From positions 30,430 through 94,429 of the forward strand of contig DATIXX010000035.1 in NCBI GenBank assembly GCA_035518095.1: 64,000 bases of DNA, read 5' to 3'. A program made the position numbers and the translations under genes. Below, in pieces: positions 3,357 through 13,955 of this stretch (its first letter is position 1; every line of letters begins with the position of its first letter). The notes under the pieces were generated by a model that saw only the letters and a list, made by a program, of their open reading frames with translations, did not search any database and was not told where the DNA came from. Origin of the DNA: Burkholderiales bacterium. GTDB lineage: Bacteria > Pseudomonadota > Gammaproteobacteria > Burkholderiales > JAHFRG01.

Positions 3357-4634
3357 TCAGAAGAACAGAATCGCGCCAAGTGAGAACTGGTGCGACGCGT
3401 TCTTGCCGCCGCCAGCTGCCGTCGCTCCGGTCGCCTGGCTGCTTGAGTGGATGTCGTCATACTCTTCCACCAGGGTGATCGACTTGGTCAGACTGTATTG
3501 CAGCATTTGCGTACGCATGCGGTTGAAGTTAACCAGCGTCGCGGCGTTTGCGGCGTTTTCGTCCGCCGCATACGTCAAACGGCTGAAGCCATAGCTAAAC
3601 CCGGGTTTCCACTTGCCGAAAGCGTGTTGCACCTGGATATAACCGCCATCCGAGTTGCGCTTGTTGCCGGCAGCATCGATACCTTGGCAAAACAGGCAGG
3701 TTGTACCCACGCCTCTCGCCTGATAGAAATAGATCACCGGCTCGAAGCCATAAACATTGCCTTTGATACCCATATCGCCCGCAAGCGCGGTAAAACCATT
3801 ATTGATGGTTGGACCTACGCCATCCGCACTGTTAAGGGTGGATCTTTGCATCATACCGCTCACCCATAAGTGAATGCTTTTTATATCTTCGTTCACATTG
3901 AAATCATACGTGCCCTTCGCTTGGAACATGGGCAACGTATGGCCGGAAGCAGTCTGTCCCCCGAGAAGACCTGAATACATGGTGAGGGGCTGGAAGATAC
4001 CTGCTGAAACCTGGGCTCCGTCCCAGCTCGGGCTAATGTAAGTGATTTGCGGAATCCAGTCGGCGTAGATGTAACCAAAACCAATACGCCCCAAAGTGGT
4101 GGTTCCCGGCGCGTTCGCGGTAGTAAATGTGGAGTTGCCACCGACACCCAGCAAGGTCATATCGCTCAATATCGCGTCAGAGGCGAAAAGACCCAGGTCG
4201 CGACCAAACTTGAAGGTCCCCATGTCTTTGTCGCCGAACGTCAGGAAGTTTTGCCGCATGTTGATTTGCGAAAGCGACAGGGCACTGTTACCGGGAGAGT
4301 TAGAAATACCGGGGTAGAAACCGGCGGTAATTCCGATATCAAAACCTTCCTGCATGGTCTTGGCTGAGAATACAAATGCCGAAGGCAACAACCCGCTGTT
4401 GACCTGGGAGGCATTAGAGCCTTGCGAAGACGGAATCGGAGCCGCGCATGCCAAGCCACCCACGACCACGTTGGCATTGTTATCGCAATGAGTGTAGGTA
4501 TAAAACGCATTGACTTCGCCGCTAAACGACAAATCCCAGTCGCCTGCCTTAACATTAAAGGCATGTGCAGCGCTCGCGCCACACAACGCGAAGGCACCCG
4601 CTACGGCCATGCTTAGCTTCTTATGCTTTACCAT
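3357..4634 (-). CDS. outer-membrane porin
   Basis: 425 aa. Signal peptide ends ...SAAHA. The body is Gly/aromatic-rich with alternating beta-strand character, and the C-terminus ...LGAILFF ends in Phe. A strong SD (AAGGAGGAAG) precedes the ATG. Confidence 0.7.
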   Translation of the reverse strand: MVKHKKLSMAVAGAFALCGASAAHAFNVKAGDWDLSFSGEVNAFYTYTHCDNNANVVVGGLACAAPIPSSQGSNASQVNSGLLPSAFVFSAKTMQEGFDIGITAGFYPGISNSPGNSALSLSQINMRQNFLTFGDKDMGTFKFGRDLGLFASDAILSDMTLLGVGGNSTFTTANAPGTTTLGRIGFGYIYADWIPQITYISPSWDGAQVSAGIFQPLTMYSGLLGGQTASGHTLPMFQAKGTYDFNVNEDIKSIHLWVSGMMQRSTLNSADGVGPTINNGFTALAGDMGIKGNVYGFEPVIYFYQARGVGTTCLFCQGIDAAGNKRNSDGGYIQVQHAFGKWKPGFSYGFSRLTYAADENAANAATLVNFNRMRTQMLQYSLTKSITLVEEYDDIHSSSQATGATAAGGGKNASHQFSLGAILFF

Positions 4635-4804
4635 ATTCTTCCTCCTTAAAAGTTGAATGACTCGCGCTTAATTACTAGAGCAATCGTGCTCTATTTGAAA
4701 TCACGATGTCAAGTCCAAAAGCAACAGACTAAATTTATTGTTGCGAAAAAGATACATTTTATTGAATAATCCTTATGTTACTTTGGCTTAGCTTGATACT
4801 CGCT

Positions 4805-4820
4805 AGCAATTCTCATGCCA
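4805..4820 (-). promoter_or_regulatory. sigma-54 (-24/-12) promoter directed at the porin gene
   Basis: The reverse complement reads TGGCATG-AGAA-TTGCT. This matches TGGCACG-N4-TTGCW at all but one position, with correct GG/GC spacing. It lies about 170 nt upstream of the porin ATG and is divergent from the HK/EBP pair. Confidence 0.6.
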
Positions 4821-5164
4821 TAATTTTTCCGTGGATAATGCAGATCGCCGATTTGCTAGGCATTTGTGGAAACAAAGAAAAAATATATCCACCTTGCGCC
4901 AATGCTGCAAGGGCTCGGGATGGCGTTCAAGGAGCGTGACATTGTGTAACTGTTAGTGGATACCATAGTGGCGTAAGCTGATAAACCGGCTTGTTATCTG
5001 GGAATCACTCATCAGGCGGGAAACCAGTTAATAAACTCTCTTGGGAAAGCCTGATCTGCGCGAAATCCTAACGTCATTTAACGAGCTCGGGACGATCGGA
5101 GTAAGCATGAATCACTTTCGGGAATCGGGACGCGGAGACGTATGACTTAAGGAAAACAGTTACC

Positions 5165-6622
5165 ATGTCCCAGCCAAAATCACTCAAGCGCCTGATGCTC
5201 TTCTATGCGCTCGGCTACTTGTTGCTCGTGCTTGCCAGCGGCGCGCTCGGCGGTGCCGGGCTATACCTTTGGCACCAGTCGTCTGAAGAATCGCTGCGCA
5301 TCAATTCCATGGTGGGAGAAATTCAGGAAATGCGGGGCAACCTCTATCGCCAAGTCAAAGAGGTGTTCGATGCGGTTTTTTTAAGCGACACGGACGCCGC
5401 AAGACAGTACCAGGAGTACCAGAAGCGCATCGAGCGGCATCTCGATAACTTGGACAATGTTGCTGCGTACAACGAGGAGCACGAAGCCATTAACCGCATG
5501 CGCCAAGCCTATTACCTGATCGAAGACCAAGCCAAGGATATCGCCCGCGCGCGCGCCGGAATGTCGCTCAAGCAGAAGCGCAAGATCTTCGATACCGATC
5601 TGGAAATGGCGGGCTTCGGCCGCTATGAAGAGGCGTTTGGTGCGCTTGAACAATTGTTACAATTTGAACAGGAGGAATTGCAAAAGCGATTGGAAATCCT
5701 TTCCCAGCTTGCGCCGCTGCTACTGCTGTTGCCGATTTTCCTCGCGGTTGGTCTGTTGATACTGTCTCGACTTTTCACCCAGCGCGCCATCGTGCAGCCC
5801 CTTTCCACGGTTCAACAAGCCGCGTTAATCATGAGCCAAGGTGACCTCTCGCATAAGGTCCCCGAGAAAGGCGCGTTGGAGCTGGTGAATCTTGCAAAAG
5901 CGCTCAATCAAATGGCGGAAGATCTCGCCGCAAGTCGCGAATCATTGCTGCGCGCGGAAAAACAGGCCGCGCTTGGTGCCCTGGTGCCCGTGATGGCACA
6001 CAATATCCGCAACCCCCTGGCGAGCATACGCGCCACCGCACAGGTCATTAACGACACTGAATTGCCGGCGGAACTACGAGAAGGTTTGTCGGGAATAATC
6101 GGAACTGCGGACCGGCTCGAACGCTGGACGCATTCGCTGCTTTCGTACCTGCACCCGCTCAAGGCCCAACGCTCGCTTTGCAAGCTGCCGCAGGTCGTGG
6201 ACAATGTTTTGGAGCTGCTCAAGCCCAGGCTCACGGAAAGGGGCATACGCGTCGTGCGCAGGGGATGGAATGGCGCTAATGAGATCGGCCTCGACGTACA
6301 GCTCATCGAACAGGCGCTTCACGGCCTGCTCGCCAACGCAATAGATGCATCGCCACAACGAGGAAAACTTGAAATTCACATTGACCAAACGTCACAAGAA
6401 GTCATGCTAACGATCGCAGACCAGGGCAGTGGCATGCCATTTGTTCCTACGGCGGGCGATCTGAGTCCCGGTCCGTCCACCAAGCGATATGGCACGGGCC
6501 TGGGAATACCTTTCGCGATGAAAGTATGCGATGCGCACGGAGGCAAAATTGAATATCGTACTGCTAACCCTCACGGCACGACTGTGACACTTATCCTGCC
6601 GATACAGGCTCAGGAGGATTAA
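5165..6622 (+). CDS. membrane sensor histidine kinase (HAMP-HisKA-HATPase)
   Basis: 485 aa with two TM segments. Has an H-box MAHNIRNPL and a G-box GTGLGIP. Its stop overlaps the following regulator gene by 1 nt (TAATG). Confidence 0.85.
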   Translation: MSQPKSLKRLMLFYALGYLLLVLASGALGGAGLYLWHQSSEESLRINSMVGEIQEMRGNLYRQVKEVFDAVFLSDTDAARQYQEYQKRIERHLDNLDNVAAYNEEHEAINRMRQAYYLIEDQAKDIARARAGMSLKQKRKIFDTDLEMAGFGRYEEAFGALEQLLQFEQEELQKRLEILSQLAPLLLLLPIFLAVGLLILSRLFTQRAIVQPLSTVQQAALIMSQGDLSHKVPEKGALELVNLAKALNQMAEDLAASRESLLRAEKQAALGALVPVMAHNIRNPLASIRATAQVINDTELPAELREGLSGIIGTADRLERWTHSLLSYLHPLKAQRSLCKLPQVVDNVLELLKPRLTERGIRVVRRGWNGANEIGLDVQLIEQALHGLLANAIDASPQRGKLEIHIDQTSQEVMLTIADQGSGMPFVPTAGDLSPGPSTKRYGTGLGIPFAMKVCDAHGGKIEYRTANPHGTTVTLILPIQAQED

Positions 6623-8049
6623 TGATAGAGAACGTAATGACGGCTCAGACCCTCGCTAAGGAATTGCAGGGCGCGCCGCGCGTTTTGCTCATTGAAGATG
6701 AAAATCTGTTCGGCCGCGCGGTAAAAAAACGCCTGGAAAAAGCCGGGCATGAGTGTTTGATGGCCGCGACACTTGCGGAAGGCCGCGAACTCGCGCGTAA
6801 TGCCGCACCGGAACTGGTATTGCTGGATTTGCGGCTTCCCGACGGCAATGGGTTGGATCTACTAACTGAGCTGCGCGCCGCAGGCGAAAGCCGGCAGCCG
6901 GCAGTGATCGTGCTCACCGCCTATGGAGAAATCAGCGACGCGGTGCACGCCATGAAACTCGGTGCGGCGGATTATCTAAAAAAGCCGGTTGATCTTGACG
7001 AACTGTTGCTTGCGGTAGACAAAGTATTGCAGACATCCCGTCTGCGCCATGCGCTCGATTATTCCCGCGAACGCGACAGCCACGCTGTCGAAGGCACGCA
7101 GTTATTGGGTGACAGCGCGGCAATGCAGCGGGTACGCGAGCAAATCCTGCGCCTTGCCGAACTAGCTGGAGAAGGAGCAGAGCCTCCCCCTACCGTACTG
7201 ATACTCGGCGAAACTGGCAGCGGTAAGGACGTCGCCGCGCGCCTGCTTCATTTATTGAGCCCGCGCTCTTTGCGGCCCTTCGTGCAAGTTGATTGTGCGT
7301 CGCTGCCGCGCGATCTAATCGAAGCAGAATTGTTCGGACACGAAAAAGGTGCGTTCACCAGTGCCCACGGAGCACGCGCGGGCCTGATCGAGGCGGCTGA
7401 GGATGGCACGCTATTTCTCGACGAAATCGGCGAGCTGCCACTGGACTTGCAGGCCAAATTGCTCAACGTCATTGAGCGGCGCAAGACGCGGCGCATCGGA
7501 TCGGTCATGGAACGGCCATTCGCTGCGCGCATTATCGCCGGAACCAACCGGCAATTGCCGGAAATGATTGCGCAGGGTCTATTTCGTGCCGATCTCTATT
7601 ACCGCCTCAACGTGGTAACGCTGAATATGCCGCCATTGCGCGAGCGCGGCGAGGATACAATCCTTCTTGCTCGCCATTTCGCGGTGCAGATGAGCCGGCG
7701 TTACGGGCTACCTGATGCTTCGTTCAGTGACGAAGCCCTGAATGCGCTGCGAGCATATTCCTGGCCTGGCAATGTACGGGAGCTTAAACATTTAGTGGAA
7801 CGCGCAGTGCTATTGAGCCGGGGCGGGGCGATTTACGTTGCCGATCTCGGTTTGTCGCAAACATTTGTCCCGCCGCAGGGCGACCAGCCATTACAAGGGC
7901 TCACCCTGGAAGCCGCGGAGCGCTTGCTCATCGAGCGTGCTTTGCTAGATACGGGTGGCAACGTTTCGGAAGCGGCGCGCAGACTTGGAGTAAGCCGTAT
8001 GACGCTGCGTTACCGTATGGAGAAATACGCCCTGAAAGGCATAACCTAA
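6622..8049 (+). CDS. sigma-54-dependent response regulator (NtrC-family enhancer-binding protein)
   Basis: 475 aa. REC domain (LLDLRLPDGNG), AAA+ Walker A GETGSGKD, sigma-54 contact loop GAFTSA (a GAFTGA variant), and a C-terminal Fis-type HTH (VSEAARRLGVSRMTLRYRMEKY). Confidence 0.9.
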   Translation: MIENVMTAQTLAKELQGAPRVLLIEDENLFGRAVKKRLEKAGHECLMAATLAEGRELARNAAPELVLLDLRLPDGNGLDLLTELRAAGESRQPAVIVLTAYGEISDAVHAMKLGAADYLKKPVDLDELLLAVDKVLQTSRLRHALDYSRERDSHAVEGTQLLGDSAAMQRVREQILRLAELAGEGAEPPPTVLILGETGSGKDVAARLLHLLSPRSLRPFVQVDCASLPRDLIEAELFGHEKGAFTSAHGARAGLIEAAEDGTLFLDEIGELPLDLQAKLLNVIERRKTRRIGSVMERPFAARIIAGTNRQLPEMIAQGLFRADLYYRLNVVTLNMPPLRERGEDTILLARHFAVQMSRRYGLPDASFSDEALNALRAYSWPGNVRELKHLVERAVLLSRGGAIYVADLGLSQTFVPPQGDQPLQGLTLEAAERLLIERALLDTGGNVSEAARRLGVSRMTLRYRMEKYALKGIT

Positions 8050-8100
8050 TGCGGCGCCTCTTCTTCACCGCTGAGAATTCCCAAAGAGACGATGGATATC

Positions 8101-8116
8101 TGGCACGGGACTTGCT
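8101..8116 (+). promoter_or_regulatory. sigma-54 (-24/-12) promoter, stand-alone
   Basis: TGGCACG-GGAC-TTGCT is an exact match to TGGCACG-N4-TTGCW. It lies 52 nt after the EBP stop codon. Confidence 0.65.
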
Positions 8117-8126
8117 GCATAAGGGC

Positions 8127-8211
8127 TCGTATCGTATCTACTGATCATTCATGCTCTTGGTATTCCTCCAACTTCCTCTCTGCGCCGGGACCTAAGTCCC
8201 GGTTTTTTTTT
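8127..8211 (+). ncRNA. candidate ~85-nt sigma-54-dependent small RNA
   Basis: Bounded by the sigma-54 promoter (8101-8116) and a strong intrinsic terminator (8185-8211). No protein-coding gene follows on this strand for 5.6 kb. Contains the CU-rich stretch UAUUCCUCCAACUUCCUCUCU (8161-8181). I recognise no known RNA family. Confidence 0.45.
8185..8211 (+). terminator. rho-independent terminator
   Basis: 7-bp stem CCGGGAC/GTCCCGG with loop CTAA, followed by T9. Confidence 0.8.
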
Positions 8212-8396
8212 ACTATTTAAACGTCTAGCTGCGTACAGTCAATCGAGGGTCCTGTGGCTTTTATCCGGCTATGCGACGTAATCGTGTGCAGCTGGTGCTT
8301 GTAGTGAACCAACTTGGTTGATTTCAGCCTTCAGCTATGTTTGAAGAGCTGGGATCTGGTGCCATATGATTAGACTCGTTTCGCCCCGGCGCTGCA

Positions 8397-8425
8397 ATAA
8401 AAAAGGGCTGCTTACTCAGCAGCCC
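8397..8425 (-). terminator. rho-independent terminator after the orphan pqqA
   Basis: 7-bp stem GGGCTGC/GCAGCCC (8405-8411 / 8419-8425). A T-run follows on the minus strand (plus-strand A-run 8399-8404). It lies 23 nt past the pqqA stop. Confidence 0.7.
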
Positions 8426-8447
8426 TTCTTTCAATCTTCTTTGCGTT

Positions 8448-8522
8448 TTAGCGGGTCAGAATGTACATCGTTACTTCGAAACCGAAACGCAGATCGGTAA
8501 ACTCGGGTTTGCTCCAGGCCAT
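8448..8522 (-). CDS. pqqA: PQQ precursor peptide PqqA, second (orphan) copy
   Basis: 24 codons, below the ORF-track cutoff. Translation is [24 protein letters not shown], carrying the invariant E-x3-Y (EVTMY) cross-link motif. GGAGA lies 5 nt upstream of the ATG. 17 of 24 residues are identical to the pqqA at 13881. Confidence 0.85.
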
Positions 8523-8632
8523 GGTTCTCTCCGTTATATAAAAATTGCTTATTTAACAATACAACGGCTCCATTGTGGCCTAGCCGTGCTTCAGGCGCCA
8601 AGCAGAAAAAACTGAATCCGGCCTAATGATTT

Positions 8633-9280
8633 TCATGAGTTTTGGATCAACCCCGCGCGCATCGCAATGAGCGCCAATTCCGCCGAGTTTGATGCATTAA
8701 GCTTTTGTTTTATATTGTATAAGTGCGTACCAACGGTGCGCGGACTCAAATGCAACATGTCTGCGATTTCGGCTACGGTTTTGCCTTGGGCCAGCAGCAT
8801 AAATACCTCGAATTCTCGCGCGCTAAGCACGTCAACCAAGCTTTTCTCTCCGGAGAGCTGCTGCATTGCAAGTTGCTGCGCAATTCCCGGCTCGATAAAA
8901 GTCTTGCCCTGGGCTACTTGACGTATTGCCTGTATCAGCTCTTCCGCCGCGCTGCGCTTGGTAAGATAACCCAACGCTCCCGCTTTCAATACGCGTCTTG
9001 GATGCATAGTGTCTTCGTGTGCTGACAATACCAGAATACGCGCCGCGGGATCTTTTGCAATGATACGATTGACCGCCTCTAGGCCCCCGATCCCGGGCAT
9101 GGAGATATCCATGACCACCACATCGGGGTGCTTCTCCTGATAGATACGGTATGCCTCCTCGCCGCTCTCGGATTCCGCTACGACTTTCATGTCAGCGGCG
9201 CTTTCAAGCAGCATGCGGAATCCCATGCGCACGACTGCGTGGTCATCGACCAGCATGACTTCAATCGCCGGCGCAGCCAT
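8633..9280 (-). CDS. NarL/LuxR-family response regulator
   Basis: 215 aa. REC domain (VVVMDISMPGIGG) plus a LuxR-type HTH (LSAREFEVFMLLAQGKTVAEIADMLHLSPRTVGTHLYNIKQKL). Confidence 0.9.
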   Translation of the reverse strand: MAAPAIEVMLVDDHAVVRMGFRMLLESAADMKVVAESESGEEAYRIYQEKHPDVVVMDISMPGIGGLEAVNRIIAKDPAARILVLSAHEDTMHPRRVLKAGALGYLTKRSAAEELIQAIRQVAQGKTFIEPGIAQQLAMQQLSGEKSLVDVLSAREFEVFMLLAQGKTVAEIADMLHLSPRTVGTHLYNIKQKLNASNSAELALIAMRAGLIQNS

Positions 9281-11007
9281 TATGTCTTTCCTTCAAGCGG
9301 CAAGCTCGCTGTTACGCGGAAACCCATATCCGGAGCGCTGTCGATTCTAAAGCTGCCGTTTAACGCTTGCACCCGTTCCCGCATCCCGAGCAATCCGAAA
9401 TGACCCTCCGATGTCGCTTCCGCAGGAGTGCCTTTGCCATCATCGCATATTTCGAGTTGCAGTACGTCGCCGGCACCTTTTTCGGCCGGCCGGCGCGTTA
9501 TTGCAATTTTCACGTTGCCGGCCCGCGCGTGACGCACCACATTGGTCAAACATTCTTGGACGATGCGGTACACGGTAATAGTTATGGTTTCGCCGAGGTT
9601 ATCCAGACTTCCCGAGACCTCGAGTTGGAATTTCAGTTCGGGATGACGCAACCTCCAGGCCGCAATGCTGTCGTGCAACGTTTCGGAAAGACCCAGGTTG
9701 TCCAGCGCGCTCGGGCGCAGGCGGCTTATGATTCCATGCATCGCACCATAAATAAGTGCGGCAACACTGACGATGGTCCGCGCGCTGCTCCGCACTTCGG
9801 GTGTGCTTTCAGCGCGGTTGGCAATCGACGCGCCTATGGTTTTGATGGCGGTGACATACTGTCCAAGTTCGTCGTGTAGCTCACGCGCAAGGCTGCGCCT
9901 TTCCTCCTCGACACGGGCCTGAATAATTTGTGTCAACCTTCGATTTTCCTCAAGTTCGCGCGCGGCCTGCTGGGCGCGCTTTCTTTCGGTGTTGTCGCGC
10001 ATGCTGCATATTTCGCCGATCACATATTCATTGCGTGGATCAATCAGCGGCGCGGCGGATAGGGACACGTCCATAAGCTTGCCGTCTTTGGCAAGCCTCT
10101 GCGTCTCGACGTTCTCGATCAGACCGCGGCGCATGACTATCTCCAGATTCTCCTTGATTTCGTTTTCTCTGCCGGGGGGCGCAAGTAGGGTCGCGGAACG
10201 ACCCGTGATTTCGTCAGCAGTGTAGCCAAACAGGCGTTCCGCCGCAGGATTCCAGAACGATATATTGCCGTTAAGATCGTGAATCATTATGGCGTCACTC
10301 GATTGCTTGACAGTCAAGGCGAGTCTTCGATTCTCCACCATGCTGTCTTGTAACGCGCTTGCCATACGATTGAAAGTATGGCTGACCGAGGACAGTTCGG
10401 GCAGTGGAAACTGCGGCAGTCGCACGTCAAAATTGCCCTGTTCCATTTGCGACAATCCATCGAGAACCCGGTTCAGCGGACGCAGTGAGCGCCCTATCAG
10501 CCAGAACACCAGGACATTCACCGCTACAAAAAATGCCAGGACGATCCATATAAGGTAGCGCAAATCGTCCCATGCATCGAGCACCGAACGCGAAGCGTCG
10601 GGAGTAATTAGCAGCGTGCCTCCGGGTATTCTTAGCGTCACGACCTGGACCTTGGGAGCAACCAGCCGGGAAAACCAACCTGGAGCCCAGCGCCCTTCTT
10701 TGTAATGCGTGGGAGGCGATTCGTAGACCAGGTTTCCAAGACCGTCGTAAAGCTTGATGTCGTTGGCGCGCACGTGCCCCAGACTATTTAGGAAATCGAT
10801 AACGACTCGCCGCTGTGTCACCGGTCCCGGAAAAAACTGGCTGCTGTAGAGCACGGTGGTCAGTAATTGCACCGCGACGCGGGTGGTCCCTTCTATTTCT
10901 TCCTTCACCGACTTGCGCGTGTCATCCACGTATATGGTGCCCGTGACCGTCACGAACAACAGCATCAGAATGCTGATCAGAAGGTTGATCCGAAACCTCA
11001 GGCTCAT
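9280..11007 (-). CDS. sensor histidine kinase (HAMP-PAS-HisKA_3-HATPase, NarX-like class)
   Basis: I trimmed the ORF-track N-terminus to MSLRFRINLL..., the ATG at 11007, which forms an ATGA overlap with the pip stop. Has a TM/HAMP region, a PAS domain, the H-box ELHDELGQ and an HATPase domain. Confidence 0.85.
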   Translation of the reverse strand: MSLRFRINLLISILMLLFVTVTGTIYVDDTRKSVKEEIEGTTRVAVQLLTTVLYSSQFFPGPVTQRRVVIDFLNSLGHVRANDIKLYDGLGNLVYESPPTHYKEGRWAPGWFSRLVAPKVQVVTLRIPGGTLLITPDASRSVLDAWDDLRYLIWIVLAFFVAVNVLVFWLIGRSLRPLNRVLDGLSQMEQGNFDVRLPQFPLPELSSVSHTFNRMASALQDSMVENRRLALTVKQSSDAIMIHDLNGNISFWNPAAERLFGYTADEITGRSATLLAPPGRENEIKENLEIVMRRGLIENVETQRLAKDGKLMDVSLSAAPLIDPRNEYVIGEICSMRDNTERKRAQQAARELEENRRLTQIIQARVEEERRSLARELHDELGQYVTAIKTIGASIANRAESTPEVRSSARTIVSVAALIYGAMHGIISRLRPSALDNLGLSETLHDSIAAWRLRHPELKFQLEVSGSLDNLGETITITVYRIVQECLTNVVRHARAGNVKIAITRRPAEKGAGDVLQLEICDDGKGTPAEATSEGHFGLLGMRERVQALNGSFRIDSAPDMGFRVTASLPLEGKT

Positions 11008-11969
11008 CGCGGGCGCTCCCCCGGCACTATCGATCTGAAACGCTCGGTCGCGGCCACCAGTGCTGAGGCCAGTGCCGGCGTGGATGCTGAATGGCCGGCA
11101 TTCTCCACTATGGTAAACCGCGCTTGCGGCCAGGCGCGATGCAAAGTATACGCGGTGCCCACTGGGCACACCATGTCGAAACGGCCGTGCACAATTTCGG
11201 CCGGAATAGCGCGGATCGCAGCCAAACCCTGTAACAACTGATTCTCGGAAAGAAAACATCCATTAACCAGATAATGCGTCTGTACCCGGGCGCGCCCCAG
11301 GACGTCATTGTCATTGAGCGCGGGCTTCGCCTCTTGTTGTAGCTCACCCAGCCTCATCAACTCGCTCTCGTACGCATTCCAAGCAAGCGCGGCGGCAAGC
11401 GCCAAGCGAGTGTCCGGCTGATGTATGGCCCGGTAATAAAAACCGAGCAGGTCATTGCGCTGCGTCCCGGGCACGAACCCCGAAAACCGATCCCAGGCTT
11501 CCGGGGCGAAGAATTTCAGGCCATCACAATACCAGTCGAGTTCACGCTTACTTGCGAGAAAAATCCCGCGCAGGATCAAACCGGCCACCGCTTGCGGGTG
11601 CTGCTCGGCGTATGCAAGCGCGAGCGTAGAGCCCCACGAACCGCCGAATAGCAGCCAGCGCTCGATCTCGAGCACGGCGCGCAGTCTCTCGATATCTGCG
11701 ATCAGTGAGGACGTGCTGTTCTCGCGCAGCTCTGCAACCGGCACGCTCCGCCCACAGCCGCGTTGGTCGAACAAAACGATGCGGTAGTGTTGCGGGTTAA
11801 AGAAACGCCGCTGTCCCGGGTTGCAGCCGCTGCCCGGGCCGCCGTGCAAAAACAGCACCGGCTTGCCCGCGGTACTGCCGCATTCTTCGTAATAAACTCT
11901 GTGTCCTCCAGTTACATCGAGCATGCCTACGGCGTACGGCTCAATTTCAGGGAAAAGCGCATGGTTCAT
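11004..11969 (-). CDS. pip: prolyl aminopeptidase (proline iminopeptidase, S33 alpha/beta hydrolase)
   Basis: Starts MNHALFPEIEPY... at 11969, in an ATGA overlap with the upstream MBL stop. Has HGGPGSG and the GGSWGS nucleophile elbow. Confidence 0.85.
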   Translation of the reverse strand: MNHALFPEIEPYAVGMLDVTGGHRVYYEECGSTAGKPVLFLHGGPGSGCNPGQRRFFNPQHYRIVLFDQRGCGRSVPVAELRENSTSSLIADIERLRAVLEIERWLLFGGSWGSTLALAYAEQHPQAVAGLILRGIFLASKRELDWYCDGLKFFAPEAWDRFSGFVPGTQRNDLLGFYYRAIHQPDTRLALAAALAWNAYESELMRLGELQQEAKPALNDNDVLGRARVQTHYLVNGCFLSENQLLQGLAAIRAIPAEIVHGRFDMVCPVGTAYTLHRAWPQARFTIVENAGHSASTPALASALVAATERFRSIVPGERPR

Positions 11970-13880: not shown

Positions 13881-13955
13881 ATGCAATGGAGCAAACCAGA
13901 GTATAGCGATATGCGCTTCGGCTTCGAAGTAACGATGTATATTGCAAATCGCTAA
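13881..13955 (+). CDS. pqqA: PQQ precursor peptide PqqA
   Basis: 24 codons, below the ORF-track cutoff. Translation is [31 protein letters not shown] lies 6 nt upstream. It sits directly upstream of pqqBCDE. Confidence 0.95.
   Translation: MQWSKPEYSDMRFGFEVTMYIANR

Follow-up and report, generated by a model that had tools for sequence, protein, structure and literature searches.

A candidate sigma-54-dependent small RNA gene with an anti-Shine-Dalgarno core beside a histidine kinase and enhancer-binding regulator in an uncultured Burkholderiales lineage

Some of the best-understood connections from two-component signalling to post-transcriptional control are sigma-54-dependent small RNAs (sRNAs) whose genes adjoin that of their activator, an enhancer-binding protein (EBP); Qrr, GlmY, CrcZ, and NrsZ are examples. 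To our knowledge, nearly all of the described EBP-adjacent sRNAs of this kind come from Gammaproteobacteria. Qrr (LuxO, Vibrio) and GlmY (GlrK/GlrR, Enterobacteriaceae) each combine a phosphorylated NtrC-family response regulator and sigma-54 with a short Hfq-type sRNA beside the regulator genes, and CrcZ/CrcY of Pseudomonas and Azotobacter are CbrA/CbrB- and RpoN-dependent sRNAs encoded directly downstream of cbrB. The NrsZ gene of Pseudomonas aeruginosa is situated between ntrC and PA5126, two genes in tail-to-tail arrangement, possesses a consensus RpoN promoter, and needs both RpoN and NtrC (PMC4253122). CU-rich unpaired stretches directed at ribosome-binding sites are typical of betaproteobacterial sRNAs; among these, ncS16 (Bc_KC_sr1, RF02866) of Burkholderia cenocepacia is located in the ompA 3' untranslated region (3'UTR), has its own start site, and has predicted targets enriched for outer-membrane components (PMC5688073). 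Here, we describe a candidate sRNA gene of ~85 nt located directly downstream of a sensor histidine kinase (HK)–EBP operon in a 64,000-nt stretch from a Burkholderiales bacterium (contig DATIXX010000035.1, positions 30,430 to 94,429), hereafter called the window, in which all coordinates are given unless a locus is named. The unit, in which a sigma-54 promoter is followed by a short RNA and its terminator, is very probably a functional element under selection, and the conservation of these predicted parts at the same position in orthologous loci is the decisive evidence for it. Its main features are as follows.

5165 to 6622, plus strand: sensor histidine kinase with HAMP, HisKA, and HATPase domains, two transmembrane segments, and a periplasmic domain of ~145 aa
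6622 to 8049, plus strand: sigma-54 enhancer-binding response regulator (EBP) with Pfam domains Response_reg, Sigma54_activat, AAA_lid_14, and HTH_8
8101 to 8116, plus strand: sigma-54 (-24/-12) promoter TGGCACGGGACTTGCT, exact consensus, with a predicted transcription start at ~8127
8127 to 8211, plus strand: predicted sRNA of ~85 nt, with a variable 5' hairpin (~8129–8154), an unpaired conserved core, and a terminator
8150 to 8184, plus strand: conserved core of two blocks, near-invariant in the six loci of subgroup G1 (defined below)
8185 to 8211, plus strand: intrinsic terminator, CCGGGAC (8185–8191)-CTAA-GTCCCGG (8196–8202)-T9 (8203–8211), with 8 pairs (6 of them G-C) and a 4-nt loop
8296 to 8330, no strand assigned: tandem dyads TGCTTGTAGTGAACCA (8296–8311) and TGGTTGATTTCAGCCT (8315–8330), a probable EBP enhancer (upstream activating sequence)

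As in the case of NrsZ, the sRNA gene directly follows an HK-EBP operon (ntrB-ntrC in Pseudomonas) within a tail-to-tail spacer, a layout that in NrsZ goes together with dependence on the adjacent EBP. NrsZ differs in being longer, in being processed to ~40- and ~140-nt forms, in its repeated stem-loops, and in activating rhlA; it shows no sequence or Rfam similarity to the window RNA, belongs with another EBP subfamily in another class of bacteria, and carries no CU-rich stretch complementary to Shine-Dalgarno (SD) sequences. CrcZ likewise is a sigma-54 sRNA whose gene comes immediately after that of its EBP, but it is ~400 nt long and sequesters Hfq/Crc on A-rich motifs, whereas the window RNA has neither such motifs nor an Rfam match. 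A preliminary description of the locus had drawn a parallel with LuxO/Qrr and GlrKR/GlmY; this parallel stands for the general type, a regulator-adjacent sigma-54 sRNA, and does not stand for the closest layout, which is that of NrsZ or of CrcZ after cbrB rather than that of GlmY. In Qrr and GlmY, the activator sites lie upstream of the promoter, whereas here the sole family-specific dyads lie downstream of it, and the seed and structure also differ; furthermore, GlmY acts as a protein decoy and not by SD pairing. The likeness to ncS16 consists of a betaproteobacterial origin, a length of ~80 nt, and an unpaired CU-rich stretch just before the terminator, but ncS16 has no reported sigma-54 promoter or EBP linkage, and with the similarity limited to generic features we regard it as analogous rather than related. 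Because no covariance-model match was obtained, and because seeds and architecture differ, the RNA is not a member of NrsZ, CrcZ, Qrr, GlmY, or ncS16. As predicted here, it constitutes a new sRNA family of a well-known kind, unusual in its probable downstream enhancer and its modular seed, and thus adds a sequence-unrelated family from uncultured soil or peat Betaproteobacteria that is conserved across the whole EBP clade.

The promoter had been located correctly in the preliminary description, where TGGCACG-GGAC-TTGCT was placed at 8101–8116, 52 nt past the EBP stop codon (8049), and a direct check found all of the other coordinates and sequences given there to be correct as well. The element has the -24 GG and the -12 GC at the TGGCAC-N5-TTGCW spacing, and a pattern count over the whole window yielded one occurrence of exact TGGCACGN4TTGCT, compared with 0.02 expected. 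The presumed activator of this promoter is the adjacent EBP, which has the receiver Asp and the Walker A and Walker B motifs in addition to the AAA+ and DNA-binding domains of a cognate regulator; its start codon is overlapped by the stop codon of the kinase gene. In the periplasmic domain of the kinase, no recognisable ligand or metal motif was found. Among 120 EBP homologues, the sigma-54 contact loop reads GAFTSA in 46, GAYTGA in 41, GAFTNA in 9, and GAFTGA in 8, its fifth position varying by clade.

Orthologous loci were retrieved via the EBP protein (L086, L088, L090, and L092; L094, L096, and L095; and L141–L143, in addition to the window), and the retrieval was therefore unbiased towards the RNA. 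A later DNA-pattern scan of metagenomes gave 43 matches, 39 of which were chance or unrelated; the family members among them were L102, L109, L122, and L125, and the first three were added to the comparison. The exact window EBP was also present in several metagenome contigs from soil or peat, L081–L085, which are locally identical in sequence to the window, and its closest named relatives include proteins of metagenome-assembled genomes (MAGs) labelled 'Burkholderiales bacterium' and ABE49522.1 of Methylobacillus flagellatus (64% identity). Conservation downstream of orthologous HK/EBP pairs, which the preliminary description had put forward as a check, was observed in 13 distinct loci (EBP identity 67–100%), all of which carry the promoter, the CU-rich stretch, and the terminator at or just after the EBP stop codon. 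The promoter itself is kept in 12 of the 13, in the same place after the stop, and its -24 element is degenerate (TAGCAC) in L095 alone.

These loci fall into subgroups. G1 (EBP identity 80–100%) comprises the window, L086, L088, L090, L092, and L122, and shares the layout CTGGCACG.GA.TTGCT, ~45 variable nt that often form a hairpin, CAUGGUWGUUCUCCAACUUCCUC, N6, and CCGGGAC..GUCCCGG-U7-9. G2 (70–72%; L094, L096, L102, and L109) has a shorter body with GCUUCCUCUAGCG, G3 (67–68%; L141–L143) has GUGACGCCUCCUU, and L095 (70%) is intermediate between the subgroups. The promoter takes the form CTGGCACG[GC]GA[CGT]TTGCT in G1, TGGCACGnGCnTTGCG in G2, and TGGCACAGACATTGCA, CGGCACATTAATTGCT, or TGGCATAATCTTTGCT in G3, where it abuts or overlaps the EBP stop codon. 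Over the ~250 nt that follow the EBP stop, the aligned G1 sequences showed 95–100% conservation in three islands, corresponding to the promoter, the core plus terminator, and the dyad pair, and the spacers between them were saturated with substitutions. The genes that come after the unit vary: an opposite-strand pqqA in the window, L086, L088, and L122, an RND pump in L094, cytochrome and beta-propeller genes in L141, and a TonB receptor in L090, L092, L095, L142, and L143. The predicted sRNA unit thus persists regardless of the following gene. Next to EBPs of 66% identity or less, the unit was absent, namely in L097 (Methyloversatilis, 66%) and in L001–L005 (Methylophilaceae, 56–60%). A scan of GTDB genomes with the EBP was swamped by the universal FGHEKGAF motif, and its best matches (56–60%, Methylophilaceae) were without the unit. 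Among the loci compared, the unit therefore co-occurs solely with this EBP clade.

This pattern bears on the simplest alternative, in which the terminator merely ends the HK-EBP operon behind a chance sigma-54-like sequence and no separate RNA is made. The operon needs a terminator anyway, and the degenerate -24 element of L095 would suit such a reading; however, an exact consensus so rarely expected by chance, and a promoter retained in nearly every locus amid randomised spacers, make it very improbable. L095 has a further peculiarity, in that its kinase gene (1530–2974) is broken into three called open reading frames (ORFs), with the TAGCAC promoter at 4449–4464; these oddities may represent either decay of the sRNA arm in that lineage or a poor MAG assembly. 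In L092, ~400 nt of repeated units (AGCGAAGCAATCTCG and CGCAATGAC; 2165–2560), which look like a REP/MITE-like repeat array, lie between the EBP stop codon and the sRNA promoter, and this insert shows the distance from the promoter to the EBP gene to be unconstrained.

One short ORF lies within the unit.

8151 to 8195, plus strand: mini-ORF ATG...TAA of 14 codons (MLLVFLQLPLCAGT), ending in the terminator loop

Five of the six G1 loci allow a short in-frame ORF to be read that stops within the terminator loop, as would be expected of a micropeptide gene, and coding-type conservation had been named in the preliminary description as the sign of one. No such conservation was seen. The mini-ORF has no SD sequence, its start varies between loci (12–14 codons), it is absent from G2 and G3, a 1-nt deletion in the core of L122 shifts its frame and removes its stop, and substitutions in the region do not track codon positions, all of which renders a micropeptide extremely improbable. 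The minus strand was also checked because the conserved block, when reverse-complemented, gives GGAGAAC.ACC-ATG; direct reading of the G1 loci gave unrelated ORFs of 3–27 codons (MNDQ*, MSVIET*, MRV*, and a 27-mer), and a minus-strand small gene was rejected. No conserved ORF was thus present on either strand, as is characteristic of a non-coding RNA.

Neither the whole window nor any of eight related loci matched a family of Rfam 15 at the gathering threshold, in agreement with the preliminary description, in which the sequence was not recognised as any described RNA family. At E<=10, none of Qrr, GlmY/GlmZ, CrcZ, and NrsZ (if curated there) was found among the matches in 7950–8700. The best permissive match in that interval was ncS16 (RF02866; 23.2 bits, E = 0.043, threshold 48), for which solely the CU stretch and the terminator aligned; membership of ncS16 was rejected, since the score lies below the 48-bit threshold and the unit adjoins an EBP gene, not the ompA 3'UTR. 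Taken with the conservation of the unit and the lack of coding conservation, this result supports the interpretation as an EBP-dependent sigma-54 sRNA with an anti-SD stretch.

The predicted 85-nt RNA has a fold energy of -18.2 kcal/mol (z = -2.45 relative to shuffled sequences). For its CU-rich stretch, UAUUCCUCCAACUUCCUCUCU at 8161–8181, a single-stranded state is predicted in both G1 and G3; the mean probability of being unpaired was 0.98 for the CU core of the window, and values in other loci ranged from 0.42 to 0.99. The core (8150–8184) thus provides the conserved single-stranded seed characteristic of base-pairing sRNAs, and is composed of an A block, antisense to an SD-spacer-AUG arrangement and reading CAUGCUCUUGGUAUUCCUCCA in the window and CAUGGUWGUUCUCCA elsewhere in G1, and a B block, ACUUCCUCUCUGCG, which is an anti-SD sequence common to the G2, L095, and G3 RNAs. 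Downstream of the core, the CCGGGAC-CTAA-GTCCCGG-T9 terminator is as had been described, and is the sole plus-strand terminator-like site within 4000–9500; its helix is 85.7% paired over 13 family sequences, with compensatory changes at three of the seven pairs. A promoter of its own and a Rho-independent terminator with a U tail mark the element, at the level of sequence, as an independent transcription unit. Since no other terminator was found between the EBP stop codon (8049) and 8185, the sRNA terminator also ends the HK-EBP operon. With the promoter near the 3' end of the EBP gene and the terminator shared, the element has the make-up of a 3'UTR-embedded sRNA with its own promoter, a 'type I' arrangement represented by MicL and DapZ. 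The earlier view of the unit as self-contained therefore stands as regards its own promoter and terminator, and has to be modified in that the terminator is shared with the operon and that the dyads 85–120 nt beyond belong to the unit. The next plus-strand gene is indeed far away, ~5.7 kb, being a second pqqA (13881) followed by pqqB (14093).

A covariance model, R1, was built from the G1 RNAs. It recognised a single copy in the window (95.9 bits) and, with ~30 bits, also detected an additional small RNA gene in the porin–kinase spacer of G2 genomes, at the following positions.

L094, 1858 to 1932; L096, 1794 to 1869; L109, 106 to 181; plus strand, the strand of the kinase: second G2 small RNA gene, with a TATACT -10-like box

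This second RNA is homologous to the 5' two-thirds of the window RNA and carries the A block; it consists of a GCGUG..CACG hairpin, UUCAUGAUAGUUCUCCA, and a U8 terminator, and it has no sigma-54 promoter. In G2 genomes, the A and CUUCCUC B blocks are thus predicted to be on two differently promoted RNAs flanking the HK-EBP operon, whereas the G1 RNA of the window has both. Such shuffling of seed modules, with two blocks on one RNA here and on two differently promoted RNAs in sister genomes, is a lead worth following. In L090, directly past the sRNA terminator (5093–5125), TTGGAGGAAGTC could form 8 bp with the ACUUCCUC seed of the RNA itself; this complementarity is not conserved in other loci and may represent chance or a cis element.

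The tandem dyads belong to a family with the consensus TGGTTGAATTCAACCA, which L102 carries as a perfect palindrome, TGGTTCATATGAACCA. A weight matrix trained without the G1 sites picked 8296–8311 and 8315–8330, the latter being the best site in 64 kb, against a background frequency of 0.065 per kb. In 12 of 12 loci, a dyad pair with a separation of 19–23 bp lies 55–90 nt past the sRNA terminator (~10 nt in L095), and the dyads accompany the EBP and the sRNA whatever gene comes next. In Methylophilaceae loci with a 56–60% identical EBP homologue, tandem dyads are located ~100–120 bp upstream of the sigma-54 promoters of TonB-dependent receptor genes (TGGAAC/TGGAAT/TGGTAC-N5-TTGC), with the EBP gene directly after the receptor gene, which is textbook enhancer geometry; in L095, they likewise precede a consensus sigma-54 promoter (TGGCACACTGCTTGCG, 4661) of a TonB receptor gene. 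As they precede sigma-54 promoters in both cases, we take the dyads to be binding sites of this EBP family, and those of the window are probably bound by its EBP. In the window clade, the sRNA promoter is the sole sigma-54 promoter near the dyads, situated 150–230 bp upstream of them (~90–110 bp in L095) and pointing at them, and the sRNA terminator is placed so that transcription stops before they are reached. NtrC-type enhancers can work from downstream positions, and natural cases are uncommon; hence, activation from downstream is plausible rather than proven. Dependence of the sRNA on the EBP through these dyads is the reading towards which we lean. Two leads follow from the dyads: a tandem DNA motif, TGGTTGAATTCAACCA, for an EBP family whose Methylobacillus member is La-induced beside a lanthanide-uptake receptor, and an enhancer that may act on a promoter located upstream of it, the transcript of which stops shortly before the enhancer is reached. 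L141 has two tandem dyad pairs, one following the sRNA (5125–5160) and a second (6362–6395) directly upstream of a TonB receptor gene (6542), which suggests that the EBP serves several sites in this one locus.

The proximity of TonB receptor genes raises the alternative that the promoter serves the receptor and that the unit is a leader or attenuator of that gene with a conditional or leaky terminator, the receptor having been lost from the window lineage so that a relic of the leader is left and the short RNA is a by-product. In L090, L092, L142, and L143, the receptor gene begins 170–220 nt past the terminator, with no other sigma-54 promoter found between the dyads and the receptor, and receptors of this family are driven directly by sigma-54 from the dyads in Methylophilaceae and in L095. 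Nevertheless, the unit, with its near-invariant core, is kept in four G1 lineages without a following plus-strand gene (the window, L086, L088, and L122) and ahead of unrelated genes in L094 and L141; the terminator is strong (7–8 G-C-rich pairs, U7–U9); an attenuator would place the probable enhancer inside the transcribed leader; and L095 retains the CU-rich stretch and the terminator despite having its own receptor promoter downstream of the dyads. We consequently regard a receptor leader as improbable.

Our preferred interpretation is an ~85-nt regulatory RNA gene, dependent on the EBP and sigma-54, whose product would act as a base-pairing translational repressor; we consider this interpretation probable as a whole. 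In the proposed sequence of events, the kinase (5165–6622) would phosphorylate the EBP (6622–8049), an oligomer of which would bind the tandem dyads at 8296–8330, ~190–220 bp downstream of the promoter and past the terminator. The dyad-bound EBP would then loop back and open the sigma-54 promoter complex at 8101–8116, and transcription would begin near 8127 and end in the U-run at 8203–8211. The unpaired core, composed of the anti-(SD+AUG) block and the CUUCCUC anti-SD block, would pair with target ribosome-binding sites, and the RNA, probably with Hfq, would block translation of the target mRNAs. Of these steps, expression, RpoN/EBP dependence, EBP-dyad binding, Hfq involvement, and repression are inferred from the arrangement of the sequence. 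That the RNA works in trans as an anti-SD repressor is somewhat favoured.

It might instead act otherwise, by protein titration (CsrB/RsmZ- or CrcZ-like), as a sponge, or in no role other than that of 3'UTR to the EBP mRNA, autoregulation being one example. The unit sequence does form the 3'UTR of the operon as well, no terminator being present after the EBP stop codon, the promoter overlaps that codon in G3, and target searches yielded no identified target. On direct reading, however, 8127–8211 contains neither repeated GGA loops (CsrA/RsmA type) nor A-rich CA motifs (Hfq/Crc type), what is conserved is one unpaired, CU-rich stretch immediately upstream of a terminator with a U tail, an organisation usual for base-pairing sRNAs, and a dedicated, conserved sigma-54 promoter argues for independent synthesis. 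Such other modes of action therefore appear quite improbable.

Among the neighbouring genes, the following were considered as candidate targets or regulon members.

3357 to 4634, minus strand: 425-aa general porin, divergent from the kinase gene, with a signal peptide and a C-terminal ...LFF
4820 to 4805, minus strand: porin sigma-54 promoter with one mismatch, 186–244 nt upstream of the ATG
4936 to 4950: porin upstream dyad GTGACATTGTGTAAC, ~135 nt beyond the promoter, differing from the EBP-family dyad
8448 to 8522, minus strand: pqqA copy 1, 24 codons, convergent with the sRNA, with its own terminator at 8399–8425 (minus strand); candidate target
13881 to 13955, plus strand: pqqA copy 2, preceding pqqBCDE

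The initiation region of pqqA copy 1 reads GGAGA[GA]AACCAUGG, in which both the SD and the AUG can pair with CAUGGUWGUUCUCC. The pairing of pqqA with the A block reached -19 to -22.5 kcal/mol in five of the six G1 loci, a range attained by shuffled cores in 0–3 of 300 trials. The gene is missing from the ORF list because it is just 24 codons long; its peptide motif is present in all G1 loci, and the gene is called as PF08042 PqqA in L088 and L092. It stands isolated, beside a GerE-type response regulator and a PAS kinase (8633–11259, minus strand).

The porin showed no Pfam or NCBIfam match. Its homologues are named 'predicted porin', and a few of them reach PF13609; an alignment-based AlphaFold model (pTM 0.74), used in place of an unusable single-sequence model (pLDDT 30), matched BpsOmp38, DcaP, PorB, and OmpF at E~1e-15. 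Homologue names, PF13609 matches, and a model fold like that of general porins thus bear out its earlier labelling as a porin. Its promoter and the GTGACATTGTGTAAC dyad are conserved in the window, L086, L088, and L090, and no porin sigma-54 promoter was recognised in G2 or L095. In the long 5'UTR of the porin gene (4635–4790), blocks are kept even in G2 (TGTTGCTTTTnnGCAACA and TTGACAC). A shared enhancer for the porin and sRNA promoters was rejected, as the porin dyad GTGACATTGTGTAAC is different and a matrix scan found no EBP-family dyad in the porin-kinase spacer. The proposed pairing between the sRNA and the porin SD holds as a sequence match, CUUCCUCU with GGAGGAAG (7 Watson-Crick pairs and 1 wobble), and fails as regards specificity, being a generic anti-SD match. 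The porin was accordingly rejected as a specific target, on account of this 8-bp generic SD match and of the lack, by inspection, of obvious co-variation across subgroups. It is a neighbour, and it may or may not be a member of the EBP regulon. For pqqA and the porin alike, a role as direct target is doubtful; pqqA may be retained as a lead that is statistically undistinguished.

Several observations weigh against the interpretation as an EBP-driven, SD-pairing repressor. With respect to activation, the sigma-54 contact loop of the EBP (residues ~243–248) is GAFTSA instead of GAFTGA, a form typical of the clade; no dyad was found by matrix scan upstream of the sRNA promoter; a putative enhancer downstream of its promoter is unusual in nature; and the dyads could, in relatives, serve solely the following gene. 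With respect to the RNA, the G2 folds partly sequester the CU stretch (unpaired probability 0.42–0.58), and the A block of the window carries four substitutions that weaken the pqqA match. With respect to targets, 7–23 of 80 other SD-bearing starts (9–29%) pair as well as pqqA in the five G1 loci with strong pairing, and in the window itself the pqqA pairing is ordinary (-15.6 kcal/mol), 34 of 80 SD-bearing starts being as good. The porin start, which the preliminary description had proposed as a first target, ranked 172nd of 1489 candidate starts in an energy-based ranking, although energy-only ranking was itself discarded as uninformative because it was dominated by long loop-rich artefacts. 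Finally, all members of the RNA family come from uncultured organisms.

The locus is situated in a quinoprotein island, which contains the two pqqA copies, pqqB, pqqC, and pqqE, together with a quinoprotein-relay metallohydrolase, a TonB protein, the ABC ATPase of a PQQ-dependent alcohol dehydrogenase system, and a PQQ-associated beta-propeller. The TonB receptors encoded after the unit in relatives belong to a single family together with those of Methylophilaceae (43–58% identity); no receptor of this family was found within the 64-kb window. Methylobacillus flagellatus encodes the sigma-54 regulator Mfla_1254 next after its lanthanide-uptake TonB receptor, Mfla_1253, and both are induced by La3+ (PMC9988556). 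The M. flagellatus protein ABE49522.1, which is 64% identical to the window EBP and 63% identical to the receptor-linked EBP of L005, is probably Mfla_1254, with which its accession number is consistent. The two systems are alike in their homologous EBP and TonB receptor families, and EBP-family dyads precede the receptor sigma-54 promoter in L002–L005. They differ in that the EBP of M. flagellatus has no adjacent kinase, that no sRNA is described there and none was found in L001–L005, and that the window lineage lacks such a receptor in its 64 kb.

From this context, PQQ-dependent alcohol oxidation or lanthanide-type uptake, the signal is possibly metal, lanthanide, or quinoprotein status. 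A more specific scenario, which we consider unlikely, is that the sRNA is the post-transcriptional arm of a lanthanide/PQQ switch, in which the kinase and EBP would sense metal or quinoprotein status, a shared downstream enhancer would drive both the receptor (where present) and the sRNA, and the sRNA would block translation of pqqA and/or of envelope proteins, the porin among them. If true, the RNA would be the first riboregulator in this pathway and the first sRNA of the 'lanthanome', and the locus would be an example from nature of a downstream enhancer serving a sigma-54 promoter.

Two look-alikes outside the family were observed at L117 (89–182, minus strand) and L132 (3112–3214, minus strand). 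Each has a sigma-54 promoter of consensus type together with a terminator and a CU-rich stretch (CUCUUCCUCCAACCUCCUCC or CCUCCUCCUUCCUCC), and both are unrelated to the window RNA; the L132 look-alike is convergent with the gene of a 45%-identical EBP, and the L117 contig is without an EBP. Sigma-54-dependent anti-SD sRNAs may thus be more widespread.

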